Shown: positions 5,276 to 64,000 of the stretch, piece by piece
How the letters are laid out: every line of letters begins with the position of its first letter
How positions within the stretch are numbered: the stretch's first letter is position 1
Assembly: GCA_964513375.1 (NCBI GenBank)
Contig: CAZEMO010000003.1
Location: forward strand, 92,730 to 156,729
Source of the DNA: an uncultured Bacteriovoracaceae bacterium
GTDB taxonomy: Bacteria > Desulfobacterota > Desulfomonilia > UBA1062
Direction of reading: 5' to 3'
Length of the DNA: 64,000 nucleotides
The notes under the pieces: generated by a model
What the model was told of the DNA's origin: nothing
Databases searched by the model: none
What the model saw: the letters and a program-made list of their open reading frames with translations, nothing else
Made by a program: the position numbers and the translations under genes

Positions 5276-8200
5276 ATGTCCATATATTGCCATTTAACAT
5301 TGCAGTACGTTGTAAATGATGATATCCGTTATCGCGGTATGGGAAAAGAGAACATAAAAAAAGACGGGTATAAACTGTCGCCTGAGCAATTAAAGATGCT
5401 CGCTTTCCTGAATGCGGTTCGAACACAGGTACATATAGATACTGTCGCTGCAATAGTTCAAATACGACCTGCCTCTCTGATTGCACTGATCAATGATGGA
5501 ATACATTCAGGATATCTTGAAGAGACACAGAAGGACGTATACTCTCTTACGGCTGATCTCCCTTCATGGATAGAGTCCGGCATCAGGATAGTCGCTGACA
5601 ACAACTTCTTCCATTCTCTTCTCGGATCGATAGAAAGCATTCAGGCTGCAGACCTGCTTCCAACAAGGTCAATGGCGGCGATTCTTGAGGGTGCGGGCAG
5701 AATGTATGAGGCGGCGTTTGCATACCATGACTCCGCATCGAAATACCTCTTGGAAGACAGCGTGGAAAATAGTCTTGAATGCGAACTGGCTGCCATAGAA
5801 ATACTCAAAAAGGAGAAGTCCTCGAAACACAGAAATTCGCTTTTCGTATCTGCAGTGATGGGACTTTCGGGTCTCTACATACGCCTCTCTCAGGCCCATC
5901 CGGAAATCATCACTCTTCTCAGGGTCGCCAGAAAGATAGCCCTCGGCATGGGCGACAGGAGGTCTTCGGTAATAATAGACCTGCATCTGGGGCGCTACTA
6001 CTTCATGAGCAACAAGCTCTCTGAAACCCTTGATGCCCTGCATAAGGCCGTCGAAGAGCTCGACGGGTTCATGGATGACGATATGAGGGATCAGGCAGGG
6101 CAGTTCGTAGGTCTTTATTATTATCTTCAGGGCAAGTATGAAGATGCGGCCGAGCATCTTGGCAAGGCAATCCATACATCTTCCAATTCACTTTACGGGG
6201 CACCAGATAATATACTGCTTCTGTTCTATGCATTCAGCTGCGCCTGCACCGGGCAGTTTCACAAGGCTATAGGCATCCTAGATGCGGGATGGCGCCGGAC
6301 TTTCAACGCTTCCAAATTCGAACAGACTTTCCATGCAAGGGCGCTCCTCGGATATATTCTTCTGTTGTGCGGAAAGAAGGATGAAGCCCTCGAACATCTC
6401 AAGGCGTCCAGATTTTATGAATGGAAAAACCCGAATGCATTCGGCAGGTGGATCACTGAGGCAGGCTTTGCCATGGAGGCATTCAGGTCAGGGCGCATAA
6501 AGGAAGCGCATGACATACTCATAAATCTTCTTTCAGAAGATATCCACATAAGACAATATCCGGTGCCCGCATTCTTCGAGATGCTTGCCGAATTTGACAG
6601 AAGGAAATATCCGGCAATAATGAACATCTCCTATGAACAGGAGAGACTCCGAATCCTGAAGGGCCCCAATGTTCATCTGAAAGGGGCGGCCTTCAGGATT
6701 ATGGCTCAGAATGTTTCATCGGCTTCTCCTGCAAGTCCTCTGATTGCGAGATATCTCTCGGAAAGCGAGAGGAATCTCGTCTCATCCGGAGATCCGGTGG
6801 AACTGGCCAAGACATACGCCGAGTTTGCAAGATACTATATCCGCAGAAAAAAGAAGGAAAAGGCATCGGAATATGCGATAAAGGCATGGGAGAGCTTTTC
6901 AGGCCTCGGGGACATATACCTTACCGATGATATAAAAAACCTGCTTACCGGCGAAATAAAATCCAGGCCTACGACCGTCGCTCGCGATGACATAACGGCG
7001 AGACTTGTAAAAATGATTGGCGACATCATACCCTCATATGATTCCGACAGCCTTTTCGACAAAGTGCTCGAGGCTATAACCGGATTTCTAAAAGCCGAGC
7101 GCTCTGCTCTGTTTCTCTTCACCAGAGAACAGGGAAAAGCACCGACATTGAAGGCTTCTCAATCCATATCTAAAGACGAGGTCAATGCACCCCCGTTCCA
7201 CAGCGCACTTTCACTGATATTCTCAGCAAGAAAAGTCAAGATGCCCGTATATAAAACACTGACTGACTATAACGGCATTGAGCGCACTGTATTATGCATA
7301 CCGGTAAATGCAGGGCCGGATTTCGATGGCGTCATGTATTTTGAATCCCTTTTCATCGCAGACGCAATGACAGACACGTCAGGTACTGTACCCGGCCTGC
7401 TCATGGATATAGCGGGCGATGCCTTTGCAAAGATAATGAGGCTTGAAACTGCAAGGAACATAACAAAATCATTACCATGTGAAGACATACATCCCTCAGA
7501 CAACAAAGATGATGAAATCATCGCAAAAAGCAGCGTAATGACCGGAATGCTCTCAGAGTTGGACAAGGCAGCCGCAACTGACGCCTCGATTCTTGTAACC
7601 GGAGAAACAGGCACAGGAAAAGAACTTATCGCCAGGCGCATACATAATAGGAGCATGCGTGCGGGAGGCCCCTTTATTACAGTCAACATCGCCGGCATAC
7701 CGGAAACACTCATAGAAAGTGAGCTGTTCGGGAATGAAAAGGGTGCTTTCACAGGGGCAGATTCACGTCACATAGGAAGAATAGAACTGGCCCACACAGG
7801 GACGCTTTTCATAGACGAGCTCGGTGAGATCCCTCTTTCAGTACAGATCAAACTCCTTCGAGTTCTCCAGGATGGGACCTTCAACCGCCTGGGTGGTGGA
7901 AGAAGCATAAAGTCCGATTTCAGACTTGTCACCGCTACAAACAAAGACCTTGAGGCCGAGGTCGAGAAAGGGGGTTTCCGCAGAGACCTGTTCTACAGGA
8001 TCAACACCTTTCATATCCGCGTACCGCCGCTTCGAGAGCGGAAAATCGATATCGTACTTATTTCTGAAGCTTTCATCAGGCACTTCACAAAAGAATTCAA
8101 CAAACCTTACGTCGAGCTTTCGCGGGAACAGCAAGAGGCTCTATTGAATTATCCATGGCCCGGCAATGTCAGAGAATTGAGAAACGTGATCGAACGCAGC

Positions 8201-8434
8201 ATCCTGCTGTCGGACAAAAATTCCATCGAACTCGCCCTTCCGGTATTGCATAATCAGGAACATAAGGACATCTTCTCCGGCACCCCTACCCTCGATGAAC
8301 TTCAAAGACGCTACATAAAACAAGTGATTGAGATGGCAGGGGGAAGAATCTCCGGGAAGAACGGCGCTTCCGCAATCCTTGGAATCAAAAGAACGACATT
8401 GAACGCAAGGATGAAGAAACTGGGCATCCGTTGA
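5276..8434 (+). CDS. Sigma-54-dependent transcriptional activator (enhancer-binding protein, EBP) with a large N-terminal TPR-like region, a GAF domain, an AAA+ sigma-54 interaction domain and a Fis-type HTH
   Basis: AAA+ motifs 'GETGTGKELIARRIH', 'ESELFGNEKGAFTGA' (GAFTGA) and 'ELGEIPLSVQIKLLRVLQDG'. C-terminal HTH 'GKNGASAILGIKRTTLNARMKKLGI'. The real start may be the ATG at 5339, because a TATAAT box overlaps the ATG at 5276. Confidence 0.9.
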   Translation: MSIYCHLTLQYVVNDDIRYRGMGKENIKKDGYKLSPEQLKMLAFLNAVRTQVHIDTVAAIVQIRPASLIALINDGIHSGYLEETQKDVYSLTADLPSWIESGIRIVADNNFFHSLLGSIESIQAADLLPTRSMAAILEGAGRMYEAAFAYHDSASKYLLEDSVENSLECELAAIEILKKEKSSKHRNSLFVSAVMGLSGLYIRLSQAHPEIITLLRVARKIALGMGDRRSSVIIDLHLGRYYFMSNKLSETLDALHKAVEELDGFMDDDMRDQAGQFVGLYYYLQGKYEDAAEHLGKAIHTSSNSLYGAPDNILLLFYAFSCACTGQFHKAIGILDAGWRRTFNASKFEQTFHARALLGYILLLCGKKDEALEHLKASRFYEWKNPNAFGRWITEAGFAMEAFRSGRIKEAHDILINLLSEDIHIRQYPVPAFFEMLAEFDRRKYPAIMNISYEQERLRILKGPNVHLKGAAFRIMAQNVSSASPASPLIARYLSESERNLVSSGDPVELAKTYAEFARYYIRRKKKEKASEYAIKAWESFSGLGDIYLTDDIKNLLTGEIKSRPTTVARDDITARLVKMIGDIIPSYDSDSLFDKVLEAITGFLKAERSALFLFTREQGKAPTLKASQSISKDEVNAPPFHSALSLIFSARKVKMPVYKTLTDYNGIERTVLCIPVNAGPDFDGVMYFESLFIADAMTDTSGTVPGLLMDIAGDAFAKIMRLETARNITKSLPCEDIHPSDNKDDEIIAKSSVMTGMLSELDKAAATDASILVTGETGTGKELIARRIHNRSMRAGGPFITVNIAGIPETLIESELFGNEKGAFTGADSRHIGRIELAHTGTLFIDELGEIPLSVQIKLLRVLQDGTFNRLGGGRSIKSDFRLVTATNKDLEAEVEKGGFRRDLFYRINTFHIRVPPLRERKIDIVLISEAFIRHFTKEFNKPYVELSREQQEALLNYPWPGNVRELRNVIERSILLSDKNSIELALPVLHNQEHKDIFSGTPTLDELQRRYIKQVIEMAGGRISGKNGASAILGIKRTTLNARMKKLGIR

Positions 8435-8468: not shown

Positions 8469-9095
8469 TTACTCCAGAAGACTCTGCACACATTGGACTG
8501 CGGTAAAAGCATCCGGCGCATAACCGCTGGCACCGATTTTATCTGCAAATTCCTGAGTCACCGGAGTACCGCCCACGATAATTCGTGCTGCCGGATCAAT
8601 TGCCCTTATGGCATCTATCGTCTTCTTCATATTGAGCATGGTTGAGCTCAAAAGTGCTGACAGCCCAAGTATATCCGGTTTCATGTTTTTATAGGCCTCA
8701 ACGAATCTCTCTGTTTTAATGCCTTCTCCCAGATCAACAACCTCATAGCCTGCCCCTTCAATGCACATCCGGACAAGGTTCTTGCCGATGGAATGAATAT
8801 CTCCCTCCACCGTTCCCAGCACCACCTTACCCCGATCTTTAATCTCACCCTTAAAACGTGCTTTCAGACAAACCAACCCCTCTTCCATTGCATGAGCCGC
8901 AACAATCAACTCAGGAATAAAGGCCTCTCCCTGGGCGAAACGCTCACCTATCTCCTCCATGGCCGGCATCATTGCCTGTTCCAGAATTTCCCGCGGTGTC
9001 ATCCCATTATTAATTGCCTCTTCCAAAAGAGAAGTTATTCTTTCATCATCCCCTGACTGAACAGCATTTTTGATATCTTCCAGCGTTTTTATCAT
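8469..9095 (-). CDS. Cobalamin-binding corrinoid protein (MtaC/MtbC-like)
   Basis: N-terminal B12-binding-2 helical cap and the Rossmann B12 domain with the DxHxxG motif 'EGDIHSIGKN'. Confidence 0.85.
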   Translation of the reverse strand: MIKTLEDIKNAVQSGDDERITSLLEEAINNGMTPREILEQAMMPAMEEIGERFAQGEAFIPELIVAAHAMEEGLVCLKARFKGEIKDRGKVVLGTVEGDIHSIGKNLVRMCIEGAGYEVVDLGEGIKTERFVEAYKNMKPDILGLSALLSSTMLNMKKTIDAIRAIDPAARIIVGGTPVTQEFADKIGASGYAPDAFTAVQCVQSLLE

Positions 9096-9115
9096 TGCCT
9101 TTCTCCTTTAATGTT

Positions 9116-10213
9116 TCAAACCTTAATGGGATATGTCCCGTATTTATGCGCCGCCCTCACCATAGCCAGATAATTTTCCGGTTTGCATCCCGGATGTATG
9201 GAGTTGGATGAGCTAATGATGTAGCCTCCGCCGGGTGCAGCTTTGGCTATTGTTTCCTTGACGGTCTGCTCCACTTCTTCCTCTGTTCCGAATGGCAGGA
9301 GATATGTGCAATCGATATTCCCCAGAAGACAAAGGCGGTCTTTATATCCGGCCTTAACCTCTCCTATGTCCATGCACTGGGGCTGATTGGGGTGGAAACC
9401 GTCAAAACCAGCCTCTGCTATATCGTCAAGAATGGGCCCCATATTCCCGTCCGAATGCTTGATGATTTTTAGCCCCCGTTCATGGGCGCGAGCCACTATC
9501 TCCTTATGGAACGGAAAGATGAATTGCCTGTATTGAGCGGGAGACATAAGCGTGGTCTGGTTGAATGCAAGATCGCCATCCAGTGCGAAAACGTTCGCCC
9601 CGAGCGCCGCGGCTTTATCGACCACCTCAAGTATGTAGTCAGTTACGATTCGTCCGAGATCCAGAACGAAAGAAGGCTTTTTTATGTAGTAGAACAAAAG
9701 CTTTTCCATACTGCCCAGAAGCGACCAGCTTTCCCTGAAAGGTCCAGGCTGTACAAACACCTGTGCAGTATCGCCGCCCATGCCGCCGGTTGACGCCATA
9801 AGCATGAGAAAATCCATGTCCTGGGGATGATATATCTTGAGATTTTTGAGGTCATCAGGTCCGGATATTGGCCCCCCCACGGAGGTCGCCTCACCTTCTC
9901 CGGCTACATACAGAACACGGCCCCAGCCATCCCTGTAGTGCGTCTCGTCTATTTTCTCCGTAACAGGCAGCGTGATCGAAGTAAGACCATCCAGCTCCAG
10001 AGCCTTGGCAAACGTAAACAGTGTATTGAGAAGCTTGATTTTTTCCTCCATGGTCATCTGGCTTGCGAATTTCATAGGCGGCAGGTCATCAGTGAAGAAT
10101 CTCCCGATCTTGATAATCGATTCTTCATTAAAAGCCATCTCCCAAACCGGAACCCGGTCAGGTTCTCTGCGGTCCAAAGCCGTCAGCATTCTTTCTTTTC
10201 CTGTCATATACAT
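9116..10213 (-). CDS. Uroporphyrinogen decarboxylase (URO-D) family methyltransferase (MtaA/CmuA-like, corrinoid-dependent)
   Basis: 'MLTALDRREPDRVPVWEMAFNEE' and overall URO-D-like TIM-barrel signature. The start was set at an ATG preceded by GAGGG. Confidence 0.8.
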   Translation of the reverse strand: MYMTGKERMLTALDRREPDRVPVWEMAFNEESIIKIGRFFTDDLPPMKFASQMTMEEKIKLLNTLFTFAKALELDGLTSITLPVTEKIDETHYRDGWGRVLYVAGEGEATSVGGPISGPDDLKNLKIYHPQDMDFLMLMASTGGMGGDTAQVFVQPGPFRESWSLLGSMEKLLFYYIKKPSFVLDLGRIVTDYILEVVDKAAALGANVFALDGDLAFNQTTLMSPAQYRQFIFPFHKEIVARAHERGLKIIKHSDGNMGPILDDIAEAGFDGFHPNQPQCMDIGEVKAGYKDRLCLLGNIDCTYLLPFGTEEEVEQTVKETIAKAAPGGGYIISSSNSIHPGCKPENYLAMVRAAHKYGTYPIKV

Positions 10214-55764: not shown

Positions 55765-56262
55765 TTATTCTGCCTTTTTGTCTTTTTTTTCAGGTACAAA
55801 AAAGGTGTAGATCAGAAGACCTACCATGCCGACTGAGATATACATGTCGGCGACATTGAATGTAGGCCATCGGTATGTTAATATATGGACGTTGATGAAG
55901 TCCACCACCTCATTATGAACAATCCTGTCCGTCAGGTTTCCGATTGCCCCTGCAAGTATAAGGCAGAGTATAGCCTTCAATATCAGAGAGTCATCGTTGG
56001 ACTGCTTGAAAATAATAAATATGGCTACTATGGCAACTACTGTCACCGTAAGGAAGAAAACAAGCCTGTATGAATCGGGTATGTCCTGCAAAAGACCGAA
56101 TGCAACCCCCGTGTTCCTTACATGTATGATCTCGAAATAGTTGGGAATTACGGTTATGCTGTCCCCTATCTGCATTCTTGTCAGTATTATCCATTTCGTT
56201 ACTTGATCTATCAGATAGAGGGGGAACATCATCAGAAGCCCCCACTTCAAATATGATTTCAT
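55765..56262 (-). CDS. lspA: Lipoprotein signal peptidase II
   Basis: 'NTGVAFGLL' and 'FNVADMYISVG'. The start ATG overlaps the ileS stop codon (ATGA). Confidence 0.85.
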   Translation of the reverse strand: MKSYLKWGLLMMFPLYLIDQVTKWIILTRMQIGDSITVIPNYFEIIHVRNTGVAFGLLQDIPDSYRLVFFLTVTVVAIVAIFIIFKQSNDDSLILKAILCLILAGAIGNLTDRIVHNEVVDFINVHILTYRWPTFNVADMYISVGMVGLLIYTFFVPEKKDKKAE

Positions 56263-59042
56263 GTCAGCTGGGAAGCGCATCTTGCACATACCTCCGGGTG
56301 ATTTTGATTAGCACCTACATCTTTGCTGTAGTTCCAGCACCTGGGACACTTTATACCTGTAGATTTTGAAACCGAAATACCAAGCTGCTTGAAGCTTTCG
56401 CTTTCAATAAAGGGGCCATCACCCTTTGCTACTTCTACTTCGGATACGATAAATATATCCTTCAGGAAACCTTTGACCGATTCAACGAAAGTAAAAGTTT
56501 CGCCATCGGCAGCAATCTTCACAACCGCATCAAGCGGATGTCCGATAATCTTATCGCGTCTGGCTTGTTCCATAGTCTTAGATACTTCCTGCTTGAGGGC
56601 TATAATTTTCTCCCATTTCCCTGCCAGGGCATCATCCTTATTGGCTTTTTCAACAACAGGCATAGCCGAAAGGTGCACACTTGCTTCCTTGCCTTCAAAA
56701 GCGGGCATGTAATCCCATATCTCTTCAGCCGTGAATGATAAAATCGGCGCAACAAGCTTCGTGAGGCTGGAAAGAATATTGAAGAGCGCTGTCTGTGCAG
56801 AACGTCTTTCTATACTGTCTTTCTTGTAGACATACAGCCGGTCCTTCAAGATATCGAGGTAAAAGGCGCTCATATCCACGACGCAGAAATTATAAATCTG
56901 CTGGTAGATGGCATAGGGCTCGAAATCATCATAAGCCTTCCTGACCTTTTCAATAAGATCCTGCAGCAGATGAAGGGCGTAGCGGTCCAGTTCGAGCATA
57001 TCGGAATACGCTACAGTGTCTTTTCCCGGGTTAAAATCAGAAAGGTTGCCTAATATGAACCTGACCGTATTCCTTATCTTGCGGTATGTCTCGACGAGCC
57101 GGTCAACTATTTCATTTGAAATGCGTATGTCGTTTGTATAGTCCTGGGCGCTGACCCACAGCCTTAAAACCTCTGCGCCGTATTTGTCTATTATTTCCTG
57201 CGGGGCTATGGTGTTGCCAAGCGATTTGGACATCTTGCGGCCTTCGCCGTCCACAACGAATCCATGCGTGAGCACAGATCGGTAAGGGGCATCTCCTCTT
57301 GTTCCTACAGAGCACAGCAGGGTCGAATGGAACCACCCCCTGTGCTGGTCAGAACCCTCCAGATACATATCAACCGGCGAGCCTATCCTTTCGTCCTTTT
57401 CACATACCGCCGCATAGCTTACGCCTGAATCAAACCATACATCGACAATGTCCTGCTCTTTTTCAAACTCTTCGGATGAACAGTTCGGGCATTTGGTCCC
57501 TTTGGGCAAAAGCTCTTCCGCTTTTAAAGCAAACCAGGCGTCAGAACTTTTTTCAGCGAATATATTCGCAACATTTTCAGCCGCTTCGCCTGAAATCAGG
57601 ACCTCGTTGCATGATTTGCAATAAAAGACCGGAATTGGAATACCCCAATCTCTCTGACGTGAGATGCACCAGTCAGGTCTGTTCAAAATCATGTTGTATA
57701 TCCTGTCACGGCCCCATCCAGGTATCCAGCGCACTTTATCGATTGCCTTTAATGCTTTTTCGCGGAGGCCGTCATGTTCCATTGAGATAAACCACTGCCA
57801 TGTAGAGCGAAAAATGATAGGGCTCTTGCAGCGCCAGCAATAAGGGTAGGAGTGGGAATATTTATCTTCATTAAGCAAAGTGCCCTTCTCAGACAGCACC
57901 CTGTTAACATTCGGATTTGCATCGAAGACGAACTGGCCTGCGAAACCTTCAACATCTTTTGTAAACCTGCCGTCATTATCGACCGGTGCATAAACTTCAA
58001 GTCCGTACTGTTTCCCTATCTCATAGTCTTCTTCGCCGTGGCCAGGTGCGATATGAACACATCCCGAACCGGTATCAAGGGTTACAAATGGTGCATTGAT
58101 AATCAACGAATCACGCTCATAAATAGGATGACAGGCCTTCATGCCTTCAAGCGCCTCACCCTTGAATACTGCAAGGGTCTTATATTCGTTTACTCCTGAT
58201 GCTTTCATGACACTTTCAACCAGTTCTGAAGCCATAATCAGGACATCAAACCTGTCTGTCTTGACAGCCGAATATTCCATGTCAGGATGCAGGGCTATGG
58301 CCAGGTTAGCCGGTATCGTCCATGGGGTTGTGGTCCATATTACGACATAGATATTCTCCCCTTTAAGTTCCGGTATAATTCCGGAGACATCCGTTGTCAT
58401 TTTAAACCTGACAAATATGGCGGGCGTTACCTGATCATGATATTCAACCTCGGCTTCAGCGAGCGCTGTTTTACACTTTGCGCACCAGTAAACAGGCTTT
58501 CTAGCCTTATAAAGCGATCCTGCAGAAATGAACCTTCCAAGCTCATGGGCAATAGACGATTCGTATTCATTTTTCATCGTAAGATACGGGTCTTCCCAAA
58601 GGCCGAGAACCCCAAGCCTTTTGAATTCATCTCTCTGTATGCCTATGAACTTTTCCGCATATTTCCTGCATTCTTTCCTGATATCAAGCTTGCTGAGCTC
58701 GACTTTCTTCTCTCCCATGTTTATTTCGACCTGATGCTCTATCGGAAGGCCGTGGCAATCCCATCCGGGCTTGTAAAAGGTATCGTATCCCATCATGAAA
58801 AAGGACTTGACGATTATATCCTTTAAGATTTTGTTGAGTGCGGTCCCAAGGTGTATATGGCCATTGGCATATGGAGGTCCGTCATGAAGTATGAACTTTC
58901 TCCTGCCTTTGGATTTTTCAATAATCTTATGATAGAGTTCTGTTTCTTCCCAACGATGAAGAAGCTCAGGCTCTTTTTTTGTAAGGCTCGCCTTCATGGG
59001 AAATGCAGTTTGCGGCAGACAAAGCGTATCCTTGTAATCCAT
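56259..59042 (-). CDS. ileS: Isoleucyl-tRNA synthetase
   Basis: 'PYANGHIHLGT' (HIGH), 'KMSKS' and a C-terminal zinc knuckle 'CPRCWNY...CARC'. Confidence 0.95.
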   Translation of the reverse strand: MDYKDTLCLPQTAFPMKASLTKKEPELLHRWEETELYHKIIEKSKGRRKFILHDGPPYANGHIHLGTALNKILKDIIVKSFFMMGYDTFYKPGWDCHGLPIEHQVEINMGEKKVELSKLDIRKECRKYAEKFIGIQRDEFKRLGVLGLWEDPYLTMKNEYESSIAHELGRFISAGSLYKARKPVYWCAKCKTALAEAEVEYHDQVTPAIFVRFKMTTDVSGIIPELKGENIYVVIWTTTPWTIPANLAIALHPDMEYSAVKTDRFDVLIMASELVESVMKASGVNEYKTLAVFKGEALEGMKACHPIYERDSLIINAPFVTLDTGSGCVHIAPGHGEEDYEIGKQYGLEVYAPVDNDGRFTKDVEGFAGQFVFDANPNVNRVLSEKGTLLNEDKYSHSYPYCWRCKSPIIFRSTWQWFISMEHDGLREKALKAIDKVRWIPGWGRDRIYNMILNRPDWCISRQRDWGIPIPVFYCKSCNEVLISGEAAENVANIFAEKSSDAWFALKAEELLPKGTKCPNCSSEEFEKEQDIVDVWFDSGVSYAAVCEKDERIGSPVDMYLEGSDQHRGWFHSTLLCSVGTRGDAPYRSVLTHGFVVDGEGRKMSKSLGNTIAPQEIIDKYGAEVLRLWVSAQDYTNDIRISNEIVDRLVETYRKIRNTVRFILGNLSDFNPGKDTVAYSDMLELDRYALHLLQDLIEKVRKAYDDFEPYAIYQQIYNFCVVDMSAFYLDILKDRLYVYKKDSIERRSAQTALFNILSSLTKLVAPILSFTAEEIWDYMPAFEGKEASVHLSAMPVVEKANKDDALAGKWEKIIALKQEVSKTMEQARRDKIIGHPLDAVVKIAADGETFTFVESVKGFLKDIFIVSEVEVAKGDGPFIESESFKQLGISVSKSTGIKCPRCWNYSKDVGANQNHPEVCARCASQLT

Positions 59043-59121
59043 TACTACCTCCTAGAATATTCATCGTCTGTATCGCATGAATCCTCTAATTGTCAATGCC
59101 AGAGCTTTCTTACAGCCAAAT

Positions 59122-59153
59122 AAAAAAGGGCCGGTGGAAACCGGCCCTTTTTT
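59122..59153. terminator. Bidirectional rho-independent terminator (A-run, stem, T-run)
   Basis: AAAAAA-GGGCCGGT-GGAA-ACCGGCCC-TTTTTT. It lies just downstream of the repeat-lipoprotein gene on the minus strand. Confidence 0.6.
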
Positions 59154-59173
59154 AAATGTTTTCAATCTGTATC

Positions 59174-60610
59174 TTACAAACCTAATATCGTCTGTACGTT
59201 ATAGTATTCGCTCTTGAATATCTGCTCATTTGCACCGTCGGACTGCTGCCAGGAAATAGCCGCATTGCCGCTGCTGCTCATAACTACCTGGGGAACAATG
59301 GCATCCTGATTGTCCTGGCTTATATTATCAGTCAGGGACTGAGGCAGTGACCAATTCAGAAGCTGAGCCGGCAGGCCTGAAATCGCACGAAATTCGCTCT
59401 TGAATATCTGGTATTTCCCTGCGGCCTCATTCTGCGAATCACGCTGATACCAGACGATAATAGAATTTCCTTTATTGTCTATCGCCACCTGAGGAAGCCA
59501 TGCAGATGTATCTGCAACGCTTATGCTGTCTGATATATTTGAGGGATGAGCCCATACTTTGCTTCTCAATTCACTTTTGTATATCCTCACTATTCCGTTA
59601 TCAAGTTCCTGTTCCCACGTAATCACGGCACTTCCGCTATCGTTCATTGCAACCTGAGGATAGTATGCATTACCTGCATCAGGACTTATATTGTCTGAAA
59701 GTCCGGTTGGATGATCCCATGCTTCGTCTGAGAAGAAGCTCATAAATATCTGATATCTGTAACCGTCATTCTGCTCCCATGTAATGATAGCCTGTCCAGA
59801 ATCATTCATTGCCGCCTGCGGATAATATGCATCCTCCGAGTTGGGGCTTATATTATCCCCGAGACTTAAAGGATTCGCCCAGATGCCATCTCTCCGCTCA
59901 CTCTTGAATATCTGCCATTTAGCCCCGTCAAACTGCTCCCATGCAACTATTGCATCCCCTATCTCATCCATTGCAACTACTGGATAATATGCGTCCTGCC
60001 CGTCAGGACTGATGTTGACCATAACGGCTCCCGGATGCATCCAAAACCCATTCGTACGTTCGCTCTTGAATATCTGGTAAACTGATCCGTCAGACTGCTG
60101 CCATACAATTACGGCATCTCCTGAAGTGTTCATTACAACCCTGGGATAATTGGCATCAGTCCCTGCAGGGCTTATTGAATCATCAAAATCAAGAGGATGA
60201 GTCCACACCCAGTTTTTCCTCTCACTCTTATAAATTCTGTAATTTGTACCATCATGCTGGACCCATACTATAATGGCATCTCCGTTATCATTGATTGCGA
60301 CCCTTGGATAATAAGCGTTTCTTCCTTCAGGGCTGATATTATCCGTCAGTTTGGTTTTTGCCCATAGGCCGTTTACAAACTCTGCCTTGTAAATCTGGGA
60401 ATTGACTCCATCGGATTGTTCCCATACAACCAGGCCGTTTCCGGCTGAATTGATGGCCATCTGGGGATTTATTGCATCCTGACCTTCAGGGCTTATATTG
60501 TCTGCAAGGCCTGTCGGGTTCGTCCATTTTTTACAGCCAACCGATAAACCGCCAGCAAGAATTATAAAAATAATCATGATACACAGCTTGCTTTTAACCG
60601 GACTCTTCAT
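59174..60610 (-). CDS. Lipoprotein with eight tandem repeats of about 52 aa ('DNISPxGxDAyyPqVAMNxxGxAiIxWeQxDG...IfKSE'), predicted beta-propeller-like
   Basis: The start was reassigned to 'MKSPVKS', which follows AAAGGAGAGG, with lipobox 'SVGC'. The periodic repeats are visible in the translation. Confidence 0.7.
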   Translation of the reverse strand: MKSPVKSKLCIMIIFIILAGGLSVGCKKWTNPTGLADNISPEGQDAINPQMAINSAGNGLVVWEQSDGVNSQIYKAEFVNGLWAKTKLTDNISPEGRNAYYPRVAINDNGDAIIVWVQHDGTNYRIYKSERKNWVWTHPLDFDDSISPAGTDANYPRVVMNTSGDAVIVWQQSDGSVYQIFKSERTNGFWMHPGAVMVNISPDGQDAYYPVVAMDEIGDAIVAWEQFDGAKWQIFKSERRDGIWANPLSLGDNISPNSEDAYYPQAAMNDSGQAIITWEQNDGYRYQIFMSFFSDEAWDHPTGLSDNISPDAGNAYYPQVAMNDSGSAVITWEQELDNGIVRIYKSELRSKVWAHPSNISDSISVADTSAWLPQVAIDNKGNSIIVWYQRDSQNEAAGKYQIFKSEFRAISGLPAQLLNWSLPQSLTDNISQDNQDAIVPQVVMSSSGNAAISWQQSDGANEQIFKSEYYNVQTILGL

Positions 60611-60795
60611 AACCTCTCCTTTGAAAAAAGATGCTCTGTGAATTGAGCAATTTTGTTCTTTAAATGCAAAAAACATGCAAAATTCCAAGTCGTTGAAATT
60701 AATAGCCTCATTATAATCCAGCTTTAATAATTCCTCATAATAATGAAAACATTTCTACTGATTCTGGAAATTGTTTGCTTAGATGGTTGAATCTA

Positions 60796-61716
60796 TCAGA
60801 TTTCCAGCTTTCCGCATATATCTTTTATCCCCTTAATACCGTGATCGAAAAAGTATCCTGATATGCCTTCAATTATACCCGGCAGGCAGAACGGTTCTAC
60901 AAGAAGTTGTGTCCCGACCTGAACAGCTGATGCCCCTGCCAGGAAAAACTGTATGGCGTCCTTGTATGATGCTATACCCCCTGCCCCTATAACAGGTATT
61001 GCTACATGCCTCGATACATCCCACACTGTTTTCAAGGCTACAGGCTTTATGGCCGGGCCTGACAACCCACCCGTAACATTGCCAAGGACAGGCCTTCTTG
61101 TTTCCTCATCGATCACCATTGCAGGTACTGTGTTTATGCATGTGAGAGCATCCGCCCCGGCCTCCTGTGCTGAAGCTGCCATCCTGCAGATATCACTGGA
61201 CATGGGAGATAGTTTTACAATCAAAGATTTTTCAGTTTTTTTACGAACTGAGCTGACGAGTTCTCCAAGGACATCGGGGTCTCTGCCGAACTGTATACCC
61301 CCTTTTTTGACATTCGGACAGCTGACATTCATCTCAAGGGCTGAAATACCATCGACATCGAGTTTTTCAGCCATCAAAACATATTCTTCCTCAGAGTTTC
61401 CAAAAAAGTTTACAATTACAGGGGTATTAAACCCCTTCAAAAATGGAAGCTTTTCTTTAAGGAACTTCTCGACACCCACATTCTCCAAGCCTATTGAATT
61501 GACCATACCACTCGCAGCTTCGGCTACGCGTGGTGTCGGATTTCCTTCTTTCGGGTCAATGGACAGACCTTTGGTTATGATGCCGCCCATAATATTCAAA
61601 TCCAGTATCTTTGAAAATTCTTCTCCATATGCAAAAGTGCCGGATGCATTCATAACAGGGTTCTTGAGCACCAGTCCGCGCCCGAGATCGACTGTCAATT
61701 GAGATTGCTTTACCAT
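60796..61716 (-). CDS. pyrD: Dihydroorotate dehydrogenase, catalytic subunit (class 1B)
   Basis: 'NASGTFAYG', 'NVSCPN' and 'IPVIGAGGI'. The start overlaps the pyrK stop codon. Confidence 0.9.
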   Translation of the reverse strand: MVKQSQLTVDLGRGLVLKNPVMNASGTFAYGEEFSKILDLNIMGGIITKGLSIDPKEGNPTPRVAEAASGMVNSIGLENVGVEKFLKEKLPFLKGFNTPVIVNFFGNSEEEYVLMAEKLDVDGISALEMNVSCPNVKKGGIQFGRDPDVLGELVSSVRKKTEKSLIVKLSPMSSDICRMAASAQEAGADALTCINTVPAMVIDEETRRPVLGNVTGGLSGPAIKPVALKTVWDVSRHVAIPVIGAGGIASYKDAIQFFLAGASAVQVGTQLLVEPFCLPGIIEGISGYFFDHGIKGIKDICGKLEI

Positions 61717-62447
61717 ATGATTTCCTCTGCTTTGAAAACAGGGCCAAGCGCACATACACTTTTATTTCCCGAAACTGTTTTAACGACGCAACCGGCGCAC
61801 ACTCCGAAACCGCATGCCATTCTTTCTTCCAGGGAAACCTGGCAGGAGACTTCCAAATGCTTTGTCATGTCGGCCACTTCTTTCAACATTGCCATAGGGC
61901 CGCAGGCATACACTATGCATGGCTTTTTCAGGCTCATGCCCGACAGCAGCCCCGTAACAAGTCCTTTGTATCCGACAGAACCGTCTTCTGTGGCGATTTC
62001 AGCCCTGGCTGGTATATAATCGAAAGGGATATCTTCTTCAGTCTTCGCACCAATCAGAAATTTTCCTTTCTTAAGTTTGTTATAAAGAGACAGGAGTGGA
62101 GGAAGACCTATTCCACCGGCTACATAAACCACCTGGCCTTTATCCTCAATGCTGAATCCATTTCCGAGAGGACCCATGACGGAAATTGTTTCACCCTCCC
62201 TGAGCATGGAAAGCGCAATCGTACCTTCACCTCTTGTCTTATAAAGCAGCGCAAGCACCCCGTCTTTAAGTTCCATTATCCCGAGAGGCCTTCTTAGAAA
62301 TGCCCCCGGCGATGGTGCTTTAACCATCACAAACTGGCCCGGACTGTACGGGTCCATCTTGCATTCAAGGGTTAAAAGATAAGTATTTGCTGCAATCTGT
62401 CTATTGCTGATGACAGTGGATGTTAACTCCTTCAAGGAACCCTCCAT
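61710..62447 (-). CDS. pyrK: Dihydroorotate dehydrogenase electron-transfer subunit
   Basis: FAD/NAD-binding fold and a C-terminal 2Fe-2S 'CGFGVCAGC'. Confidence 0.85.
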   Translation of the reverse strand: MEGSLKELTSTVISNRQIAANTYLLTLECKMDPYSPGQFVMVKAPSPGAFLRRPLGIMELKDGVLALLYKTRGEGTIALSMLREGETISVMGPLGNGFSIEDKGQVVYVAGGIGLPPLLSLYNKLKKGKFLIGAKTEEDIPFDYIPARAEIATEDGSVGYKGLVTGLLSGMSLKKPCIVYACGPMAMLKEVADMTKHLEVSCQVSLEERMACGFGVCAGCVVKTVSGNKSVCALGPVFKAEEIIW

Positions 62448-62468
62448 ATTGATAAACTACTTATTTTC

Positions 62469-63149
62469 TTATGAAGCACATTTCCATAATACTGCTGCCG
62501 AGACCCCCAGGATAAAAGCACCCGCCCAGGAATACCGCGAATGCATTCTTTTGCCTGTTACAAGACCGGCAAGGCCAATCATTACTGAAACCGCAGGCAT
62601 ATATGAAAAAACCTTCATGGCTATCTGAGGCATCACCGGAATTATAAACCATGCAATTGATGAAAATACCGAAACGCAAACAGCAGTAATCACAAGTATC
62701 TTGATATATGCTTCCGCCAGAGATTTGATCATCACCAAATCGATTTTCTTAAGCCAGTCATCTCCAAGCATGTCTGGGATATCTTCATTCGTTTTCATGA
62801 TATATGCATCCATTTCCCTTCCGATAATAAGAGACGGCACACACAATACGAGCGCAAATCCTGCTGCTGGGAGATTCTCCATTGTCTGTGAGGCTACATA
62901 TGCCACGGGGAGGGCAACAACCGTACAGAAATTCTCGTCATATGGGAGATAACCGCCGACCGGCGGTGCATAAAGCCCTATAATTTCCAATGAAACTCCT
63001 ATTATAAGGGCCAATTGGATATTACCCAGGATTAAGCCGAGAATTGCAGAAATAACAACAGGCCTGCTTATTTGAATCTGAAGCGCATACTCTCTATCCA
63101 TCCAGAGCAGTGCACCGATAAATACTGATGCTGTGATGGATGTTATCAT
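62469..63149 (-). CDS. PTS mannose/sorbose-family EIIC component
   Basis: 'RPVVISAILGLILGNIQLALIIGVSLE' is typical of ManY-type EIIC. Confidence 0.7.
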   Translation of the reverse strand: MITSITASVFIGALLWMDREYALQIQISRPVVISAILGLILGNIQLALIIGVSLEIIGLYAPPVGGYLPYDENFCTVVALPVAYVASQTMENLPAAGFALVLCVPSLIIGREMDAYIMKTNEDIPDMLGDDWLKKIDLVMIKSLAEAYIKILVITAVCVSVFSSIAWFIIPVMPQIAMKVFSYMPAVSVMIGLAGLVTGKRMHSRYSWAGAFILGVSAAVLWKCAS

Positions 63150-63631
63150 TCTTCTAGAGTATCGAGTATATGATTAATGTCAATCTCTTTTTCTCTCGGT
63201 ACAGACTGAAGATTAATTGATATTCCCTGTGCTATCATTTCTTTGAGCATAAGGATATCCTCTTTGTTCACCCAGAACGAATGCATCAGCTGCTTATCAC
63301 AACCGGATGAACGCATGTTGCCGAGATTTATTCTTGCGGGAATTCCTTTTTGTACAATCCTGTATGCATCTAACACAGAGGATACGATTATCAGTGTCGT
63401 TTTATTCAGAAGTTCAGGGTCTTCTGAAAGATCCTTTACGCTTTCGACACCAACCATTCTGAGTTTAATTCTTTCGGGCACTGCCATTGAGAGTATAGCC
63501 ATCTGGAACTGGTCTTCTGAGAGCATATCATTTGCTACCACAACACATTGCGCCTTCAGATAAGGAATCCATGATTCGAGTATCTGGCCATGAATCAGTC
63601 TGTCATCGACCCTTATCAGAACTATATTCAT
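63146..63631 (-). CDS. PTS mannose/sorbose-family EIIB component
   Basis: 'MNIVLIRVDDRLIHGQI' contains the phospho-His loop. Confidence 0.8.
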   Translation of the reverse strand: MNIVLIRVDDRLIHGQILESWIPYLKAQCVVVANDMLSEDQFQMAILSMAVPERIKLRMVGVESVKDLSEDPELLNKTTLIIVSSVLDAYRIVQKGIPARINLGNMRSSGCDKQLMHSFWVNKEDILMLKEMIAQGISINLQSVPREKEIDINHILDTLEE

Positions 63632-64000
63632 TATTTTTTTGCGGTGGGCGCCAGTATTTCAGATGCAATATATATATTGCTCTTTCCGCTTTCTTTTAAC
63701 AATTGCGCCATTTCTTTTATTGACCTGTTCTCCCGTTTTGTTATTGCCCCTATCAACATGGGAAGATTTACACCGGTTATGACCTCAACTTGTTCTTCAA
63801 GGAATGACAGACTTATATTGGACGGCGTTCCTCCGAACATGTCGGTCAGGATTATAACACCATCGCCTGTATTAACTTCCTTGATAGAAGTCTTAAGCAT
63901 TTTTCTGAGCTTTTCCACATCGCTTCCCTGACAGAACGAACATGCCTTCACACCTTCTACATGGCCTACTATAAGCTCTGCAGTTTCAATTAACGAAGAT
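63631..64000 (-). CDS. PTS mannose-family EIIA component. The 5' end lies outside the window.
   Basis: The frame stays open to the window edge ('...LIETAELIVGHVEGVKAC...'). The track's 'M' here is a GTG. Confidence 0.6.
   Translation of the reverse strand, partial: SSLIETAELIVGHVEGVKACSFCQGSDVEKLRKMLKTSIKEVNTGDGVIILTDMFGGTPSNISLSFLEEQVEVITGVNLPMLIGAITKRENRSIKEMAQLLKESGKSNIYIASEILAPTAKK

Follow-up and report, generated by a model that had tools for sequence, protein, structure and literature searches.

The minus-strand gene at positions 59174-60610 of the 64,000-nucleotide stretch analysed here (termed the window; contig CAZEMO010000003.1 of an uncultured Bacteriovoracaceae bacterium) encodes a predicted lipoprotein of 478 residues, the entire mature part of which would form one closed, pseudo-eight-fold-symmetric β-propeller. 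We consider it highly probable that the protein adopts this closed eight-bladed fold and belongs to a very common repeat family, for which NCBIfam NF053835 is the sole curated model that clearly matches. The gene is complete, as judged from the open reading frame (ORF) list and its translation, from same-length homologues that are 74-89% identical, and from its presence at the same locus in relatives.

Repeat units and overall fold

The protein contains eight tandem units that begin at residues 37, 90, 144, 198, 252, 306, 361 and 428, with lengths of 53, 54, 54, 54, 54, 55, 67 and 51 residues, respectively; six of the eight units are 53-55 residues long. A preliminary description of this DNA had correctly identified the eight repeats and their motif, although its unit length of about 52 residues was slightly short of the typical 54. 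On the minus strand, units 1 to 6 are encoded at 60344-60502 (residues 37-89), 60182-60343 (residues 90-143), 60020-60181 (residues 144-197), 59858-60019 (residues 198-251), 59696-59857 (residues 252-305) and 59531-59695 (residues 306-360), as delimited by the unit alignment, the structural model and a single-repeat hidden Markov model (HMM). In the unit alignment, the 67-residue unit 7 (residues 361-427; 59330-59530, minus strand) has insertions in the B-C loop and before strand D, and unit 8 (residues 428-478; 59177-59329, minus strand) comprises strands A to C only and reaches the end of the protein. The repeats are old, having diverged to a mean identity between units of 54% in protein and 60% in DNA. 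The nucleotide-level periodicity that the preliminary description deduced from the repeats is present but weak, with an in-frame autocorrelation peak at a lag of 162 nucleotides (44% matches against a background of 26%, z = 11), and Tandem Repeats Finder reported no DNA tandem repeat.

An AlphaFold2 model was computed from alignment A1, which comprises 37 homologues, and reached a predicted local distance difference test score (pLDDT) of 91.8 and a predicted TM-score (pTM) of 0.89. Its secondary structure is perfectly periodic, with eight blades that each have three long strands and one short strand. The sole internal part of low confidence is the second insertion of unit 7, where the pLDDT drops to 68 at residues 411-420. 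Each 54-residue unit would start with strand A (P-Q-V-A-M) and a D/N-G turn, continue with strand B (A-I-I-V-W) and a Q-S-D-G turn, followed by strand C (Q-I-F-K-S-E) and an N-G turn, and end with strand D (W-T-H-P), from which a long conserved loop, L-x-D-N-I-S-P-D-G-Q-D-A, would lead to the next blade. The strand-A motifs of the window protein are PQMAI, PRVAI, PRVVM, PVVAM, PQAAM, PQVAM, PQVAI and PQVVM.

The ring is predicted to be shut by an N-terminal "velcro" strand (residues 27-32, KWTNPT; 60515-60532, minus strand), which is assigned as a strand by DSSP at residues 27-30, contains the W29 and P32 that are near-invariant in A1, and supplies the outer fourth strand of blade 8. The sequence itself argues for a closed ring, since its eight A-B-C units and eight W-x-x-P D strands are offset by one: the first D strand (W29-T-N-P) comes ahead of unit 1, and none follows the strands of unit 8. 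Ring closure by an N-terminal strand is the classical velcro closure of propellers. The model and this strand support the earlier suggestion that an eight-bladed β-propeller is the likeliest fold, and the structure prediction proposed at that time as a check on the repeats returned eight blades. As the velcro strand begins three residues after Cys26, the predicted site of lipidation, the propeller may be anchored by its rim directly on the membrane, without a flexible tether.

Comparison with known propellers

No profile test of the sequence placed the protein in BNR_4, WD40, PD40 or BamB. Structural similarity search using Foldseek placed propellers of the BNR_4/sialidase clan at the top (E ~5e-9), with TM-scores of 0.5 or lower; those compared were the GH145 enzyme BT3686 (PDB 5mul), the PL42 enzyme FoRham1 (PDB 7esl) and the GH33 sialidases. 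They share with the window protein tight inter-strand hairpins and an Asp-box-like S...G.W spacing in the C-D turn, as well as a (here predicted) extracytoplasmic location and a (here putative) link to carbohydrates. However, these propellers have six or seven blades, compared to eight in our model, and the canonical SxDxGxTW is absent from the window family. Moreover, the enzymes of this clan have asymmetric active sites, none of which is detectable in the window family.

The eight-bladed WD40 propellers compared were TBL1XR1 (PDB 5naf), Rsa4 (PDB 4wjv), ODA16 (PDB 5nnz), Cdc4 (PDB 1nex) and Sif2 (PDB 1r5m), together with the designed propeller Ika8 (PDB 6g6o). Their sequence identity to the window protein is 4-11%, and across the structural matches that include Cdc4, Sif2, Fbw7 and Ika8 it is 4-14%. 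The likeness to WD40 propellers is structural only, as the window protein has neither a Pfam WD40 match at E<=10 nor the GH...WD signature. These WD40 proteins are eukaryotic, cytosolic or nuclear and not lipoproteins, and their blades are not near-identical.

The PLL lectins (PLL, PDB 5c9o; BP39L, PDB 6gxr; CV39L, PDB 6gxs), of which CV39L is among the Foldseek matches, also have highly similar blades. These lectins bind their ligands multivalently, a property that the window protein might share by analogy. They differ in being seven-bladed, soluble and not lipoproteins, and no sequence-level relationship to them was detected in the Pfam and PDB searches. BamB (YfgL) gave no sequence or profile match and has a different, PQQ-like type of repeat; it is single-copy with a conserved role, whereas the module of the window protein is multi-copy and fused to diverse surface domains.

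A widespread family of repeat proteins

No Pfam family matched the window protein at cutoff, the best being DUF5894 with a below-cutoff E of 0.0026. A profile search of the PDB gave no true sequence match, its sole match being a spurious one to an FF/WW domain, and the models for WD40, Kelch, NHL, SBBP, YVTN and PD40 detected nothing on the protein. PHROGs matched neither the window protein nor the commonest N-terminal extension of its family. These searches bear out the preliminary description, which had not recognised the family and had set it apart from the WD40, Kelch, NHL, SBBP and YVTN repeats.

NF053835, an equivalog model of 458 positions named "PDIAV motif-containing lipoprotein", matches the window protein at 61.4 bits (E = 1e-16). 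This is below its cutoff of 90, so that the name would not be given to the 478-residue protein. The best alignment spans residues 10-125, that is, the signal peptide and two repeats, and starts at profile position 5 and residue 10. All 37 aligned homologues match the model (best E, 1.5e-35), and P0014, P0018 and P0009 exceed its cutoff with 107-124 bits. Like the proteins named by NF053835, the window protein is a lipoprotein by its predicted lipobox. The literal PDIAV is absent from the window repeats, which share its form and differ in residues (PRVAI, PQVAM, PQVAI); from this form, the name-giving motif would correspond to strand A, P-Q-V-A-M. A confident assignment to a characterised repeat family of known function, which would have spoken against the preliminary description, was not obtained; what emerged instead is this below-cutoff relative, which is named after its motif and carries no described function.

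The family is very common, and the gene is an ordinary hypothetical lipoprotein gene rather than a rare oddity. A word-indexed search returned more than 645 homologues, and an exhaustive profile search of 1.84 billion cluster representatives returned 31,673 at E<=1e-3, 15,818 at E<=1e-10 and 3,757 at E<=1e-30. By their source labels, the members come from Desulfomonilia, Desulfobulbaceae and other "Deltaproteobacteria", from Oligoflexia/Bacteriovoracaceae, and from Sumerlaeota, Planctomycetota and KSB1. Several members (P0011, P0012, P0025, P0039, P0069, P0112 and others) bear the IMG names "HigB toxin", "YheU family" or "CbrC family", which look like spurious names derived from repeat-inflated weak matches.

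The single-repeat HMM, which was built from the window units, was run on 121 family proteins. In 103 of these, the number of repeats is exactly eight; the array is always C-terminal and follows N-terminal extensions of 0-370 residues. One protein of 818 residues carries two eight-repeat arrays with TSP3-like Ca-binding repeats between them. As the number and the C-terminal position are so constant and the array can occur twice in one chain, the eight-repeat array is, on sequence grounds, an independent domain. Of the 121 proteins, 55 have a lipobox. The N-terminal extensions fall into three main groups, two of which match DUF4369 and DUF5018 (immunoglobulin (Ig)-like or β-sandwich), while neither Pfam nor PHROGs matched the largest; a fourth group, which is small, gave PKD/Big Ig-like domains. 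Long members, some of which reach 7019 residues, have added Lcl_C, right-handed β-helix/NosD/DUF1565, GLUG, PKD, Fn3, bacterial TSP3, MopE, SBBP, FG-GAP, PASTA and RHS domains. This predicted repertoire is that of secreted and cell-surface proteins, in which the propeller is the distal module.

Some variation in repeat and copy number was seen among relatives. The 65%-identical orthologue P0005 (L004, 139-1410) has seven repeats, one 54-residue unit having been lost in register to leave a hybrid of units 3 and 4; unequal crossover or assembly collapse could account for this. Locus L010, on the contig that carries P0053, a protein labelled Deltaproteobacteria HGW-2 by NCBI, has tandem paralogues of 465 and 540 residues (7001-8398 and 8492-10114), both with eight repeats, downstream of prfC. 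At least two loci (L007 and L008) are present in one metagenome-assembled genome (MAG) of Sumerlaeota. Within the window, the lipoprotein gene has no paralogue.

Blade symmetry and putative function

Among the 103 eight-repeat proteins, the consensus at each of the eight blade positions is the same 54-residue string, and no blade-specific conserved residue was found. The most conserved segment, at 70-90% in every blade, is the inter-blade loop D-N-I-S-P-D-G, which is not a core strand in the model. Compared to a 75%-identical orthologue, each blade pairs with its own counterpart (diagonal 0.80, off-diagonal 0.48); compared to homologues at 45-55% identity, there is no blade orthology (diagonal 0.47-0.58, off-diagonal 0.47-0.57). 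Such equal constraint on all blades is the pattern of multivalent binders or of purely structural rings, and the absence of blade-specific residues argues against a single asymmetric active site.

We propose, with moderate confidence, that the protein serves in the cell envelope as a lipid-anchored propeller for multivalent binding, not for catalysis. This proposal is made because the blades share one consensus without blade-specific residues and because the module sits at the C-terminus of surface proteins of the Ig-like, PKD, β-helix and adhesin types. The protein would reside in the envelope, probably at the outer membrane, of a Gram-negative, Desulfomonilia-type bacterium, and would bind via eight copies of its acidic, polar D-A and B-C loops on one face. 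Its likeliest ligand would be a repetitive one, such as a glycan or an envelope or extracellular polymer. More tentatively, the 54-residue repeat "DNISPDG...PQVAM...IVW...QIFKSE...WTHP" might define a new class of lectins or adhesin heads that are eight-fold-symmetric propellers and very widespread. With the eight identical acidic loop sites of one face, these would attach to a repetitive glycan or to a mineral or polymer surface, possibly via bound cations. Members of this putative class, lipid-anchored alone or placed at the tip of giant surface fibres, would span Desulfobacterota, Bdellovibrionota/Oligoflexia, Sumerlaeota, Planctomycetota and KSB1.

Several points weigh against the binding propeller. 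In the Foldseek ranking, lectins are no closer than generic WD40 scaffolds, and the propellers of glycoside hydrolases and sialidases come first. The equal conservation of the blades could reflect constraints of folding and stability alone. The placement of the conserved loops on one face follows from general propeller topology, not from a measured surface. The lipoprotein prediction is a pattern match, and its lipobox has a Ser at position -3. Finally, literature searches with the motif strings, with "PDIAV" and the NCBIfam name, and with DUF5894/BNR_4 found nothing on the family.

Three other explanations were weighed against the binding propeller. The protein could be a carbohydrate-active enzyme of the BNR_4/sialidase propeller clan, with a central active site on one face and the GH145 rhamnosidase, the PL42, PL24 and PL25 lyases and the GH33 sialidase as relatives. 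The top Foldseek matches in the PDB are indeed GH145 BT3686, BACINT_00347, BACCELL_00856, PL42 FoRham1 and sialidases (E ~5e-9 to 1e-7), and FoRham1 is a BNR_4 member (PMC8377490). Summed Pfam scores match BNR_4 in 26 of 37 family members and "Neuraminidase-like" in 20 of 37, and NCBI uses the name "sialidase family protein" for a few relatives. In addition, an Asp-box-like S...W spacing is present in the C-D hairpin S-E-Y-R-N-G-x-W, and Pfam BNR_6 matches there in P0061 and P0066, which have R-G-G at that position. However, BNR_4 (gathering score, 27.3 bits) did not match the window protein at E<=10, and the BNR_4 sums of its relatives, 20-80 bits, contain no individually significant stretch. 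In a control, an idealised protein of eight consensus units gave comparable above-cutoff sums to IL1, Bag6_BAGS and CFSR; the summed scores are therefore a repeat artefact, and membership in BNR_4, "Neuraminidase" or DUF5894 was rejected after this control. The repeats lack the canonical Asp-box S-x-D-x-G-x-x-[WFY]: the pattern occurs once in the window protein, out of register, and 110 of the 121 family proteins do not contain it at all. The C-D turn S-E-x-R-N-G-x-W is without the Asp of the Asp-box. An enzyme with one asymmetric centre would also be expected to show blade-specific conservation, the absence of which in the family argues against it. A remote relationship to the BNR clan is possible, though unproven, and an enzymatic role is improbable.

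A role as a periplasm-facing scaffold lipoprotein of an envelope machinery, acting by protein-protein contacts in analogy to BamB or the TolB/PD40 propellers, is unlikely, if not to the same degree as catalysis. BamB is an eight-bladed propeller lipoprotein of the BAM complex, and a lipobox followed by a modelled eight-bladed propeller is the same architecture. The gene also lies directly upstream of ileS-lspA, lspA encoding the lipoprotein signal peptidase, in the window and in close relatives. Yet the gene has a terminator to itself, and the neighbourhood occurs in a single narrow clade. In 25 of 37 family members, NF053607, the model for the CHU_0125 OmpA-like outer-membrane integrity protein, gives weak summed matches, and the middle part of CHU_0125 is a PD40 propeller (PMC5891637). 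These matches of the relatives reach 25-46 bits against a cutoff of 620 without a single significant stretch, the window protein has no such match and neither TPR nor OmpA_C, and no Pfam or NCBIfam match to BamB, PQQ or PD40 models was obtained. Many genomes have several paralogues, such as the tandem pair of L010 and the two loci of the Sumerlaeota MAG, and the module is fused to surface proteins of adhesin type and of giant size (up to 7019 residues), which is ill-suited to a dedicated subunit of a machine. Rather unlikely, too, though the least so of these explanations, is a ligand-less structural or spacer element, for instance a rigid component of a surface coat or S-layer-like structure, whose blades would be conserved for folding only. 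It would fit the mostly fold-building nature of the conserved positions (Trp in strands B and D, D/N-G turns, Pro), the lack of a conserved genomic partner, and the great abundance and many paralogues of the family. On the other hand, the best-conserved stretch, D-N-I-S-P-D-G, lies in the inter-blade loop outside the core strands of the model, and a C-terminal position on stalk-like Ig, PKD and fibre domains is typical of functional heads, not of spacers.

Gene start and signal peptide

The gene runs from an ATG at 60610 to a stop codon at 59174-59176. The Shine-Dalgarno sequence AGGAGAGG (60613-60620, minus strand) lies two bases 5' of the ATG, as read directly from the DNA, and its GGAG core is kept in the relatives L002 and L001. 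A longer reading is mechanically open, as a TTG at 60688 would give 504 residues. The ORF of L002, whose protein is 91% identical, is 478 residues long and leaves no room for an upstream extension, for which reason 60610 is likely the real start. In a public assembly of the window organism (L017, 6041-7543), the gene is called as 500 residues from an upstream ATG, which buries the signal peptide. This call is probably an over-extension, given that the 478-residue ORF of L002 cannot be extended upstream, and it accounts for the absence of the exact 478-residue sequence from the protein collection.

The N-terminus MKSPVKSKLCIMIIFIILAGGLSVGC matches the lipobox pattern of PROSITE, which designates Cys26 for lipidation. 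The signal peptide with its lipobox thus covers residues 1-26 (...LSVG-C26; 60533-60610, minus strand), and Cys26 would be lipidated and become residue 1 of the mature protein, which has no other cysteine. The same pattern with a Cys at position 26 is present in P0001-P0005 and P0007, and the AlphaFold2 model has a helix at residues 4-21, in the signal peptide region. The GC content of the gene is 45.3%, compared to 46.1% for the window, which offers no compositional support for horizontal acquisition, an origin that had been considered.

Genomic context

As in the preliminary description, the gene is flanked by ileS (56259-59042) and pyrD (60796-61755); all three are encoded on the minus strand. 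The strong terminators said to bracket it were found on one side: downstream, an intrinsic terminator (59121-59154, minus strand) has a GGGCCGG/CCGGCCC stem of 15 pairs followed by a T-run and, being palindromic, is detected on both strands; upstream, a terminator-like scan found no more than a small hairpin (60622-60649, minus strand) with a 5-bp stem, an 8-nucleotide loop and a T-run. The downstream terminator is kept in four relatives, with an invariant GGCCGG/CCGGCC core and a variable loop. The upstream hairpin lies between pyrD and the Shine-Dalgarno sequence, about 10 nucleotides 5' of the latter, with its T-run element scanned at 60632-60649. Its stem, TGCTC/GAGCA in the window and TGTTC/GAACA in L002, shows one compensatory change, and the hairpin may belong to the 5' untranslated region or terminate pyrD weakly. 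A sigma-54 promoter in the conserved upstream block TTGGAATTTTGCA was rejected, because the GG-GC spacing is 8 rather than 12 in the alignment read by eye.

Between the terminator of the gene and the ileS start, a block of about 60 nucleotides (59043-59104, minus strand), which includes TTGACA at 59091-59096, is near-invariant, with two variable of about 62 positions. It is kept in four relatives whose propeller proteins are only 65-91% identical, and looks like a strongly constrained promoter or leader of ileS. Rfam detected nothing in the whole window, including this block. Further downstream, lspA (a 174-residue ORF at 55765-56289; Peptidase_A8 in relatives) shares about 30 nucleotides (56259-56289) with the 3' end of ileS, which is the classical ileS-lspA coupling.

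The order pyrK-pyrD-propeller-ileS-lspA is kept in relatives with propeller proteins of 91% and 75% identity, and partially in one of 65%. Desulfomonilia relatives whose PyrD is 61-68% identical keep rapZ-PTS-pyrK-pyrD (PTS, phosphotransferase system), but have comEC and pilin genes after pyrD. Because the downstream neighbour of pyrD thus differs in more distant relatives, the gene is at a synteny breakpoint, and it is fixed there in no more than a narrow clade. Adjacency to lspA was rejected as a sign of a functional link, the arrangement being confined to this one clade. There is no conserved operon partner: four distant homologues lie among unrelated housekeeping genes (prfC, dnaB, tgt), sometimes as tandem paralogues.

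The block of rapZ, mannose-type PTS EIIA/EIIB/EIIC, pyrK and pyrD (window ~60796-63951; L014-L016) is conserved across the Desulfomonilia relatives. An extra GNAT acetyltransferase gene is present in its more distant relatives and is fused to pyrK in L014. Downstream of pyrD, the neighbour switches between comEC with type IV pilins and propeller-ileS-lspA. The three closest syntenic relatives, L002, L003 and L004 (65-91% identical), are MAGs labelled Bacteriovoracaceae, Desulfomonilia and Oscillospiraceae; at least two of these three labels are probably binning or taxonomy errors.

Implications for the family

The finding has no bearing on any long-standing open question. It does point to a repeat family of more than 30,000 cluster representatives that is still without a Pfam model or a studied member, and whose sole curated name derives from a motif. 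The near-perfect internal symmetry, kept across phyla, makes the propeller a candidate natural multivalent binder and a natural counterpart of the designed symmetric propellers. Identification of its ligand would provide an annotation for tens of thousands of surface proteins, carried by environmental and anaerobic bacteria.

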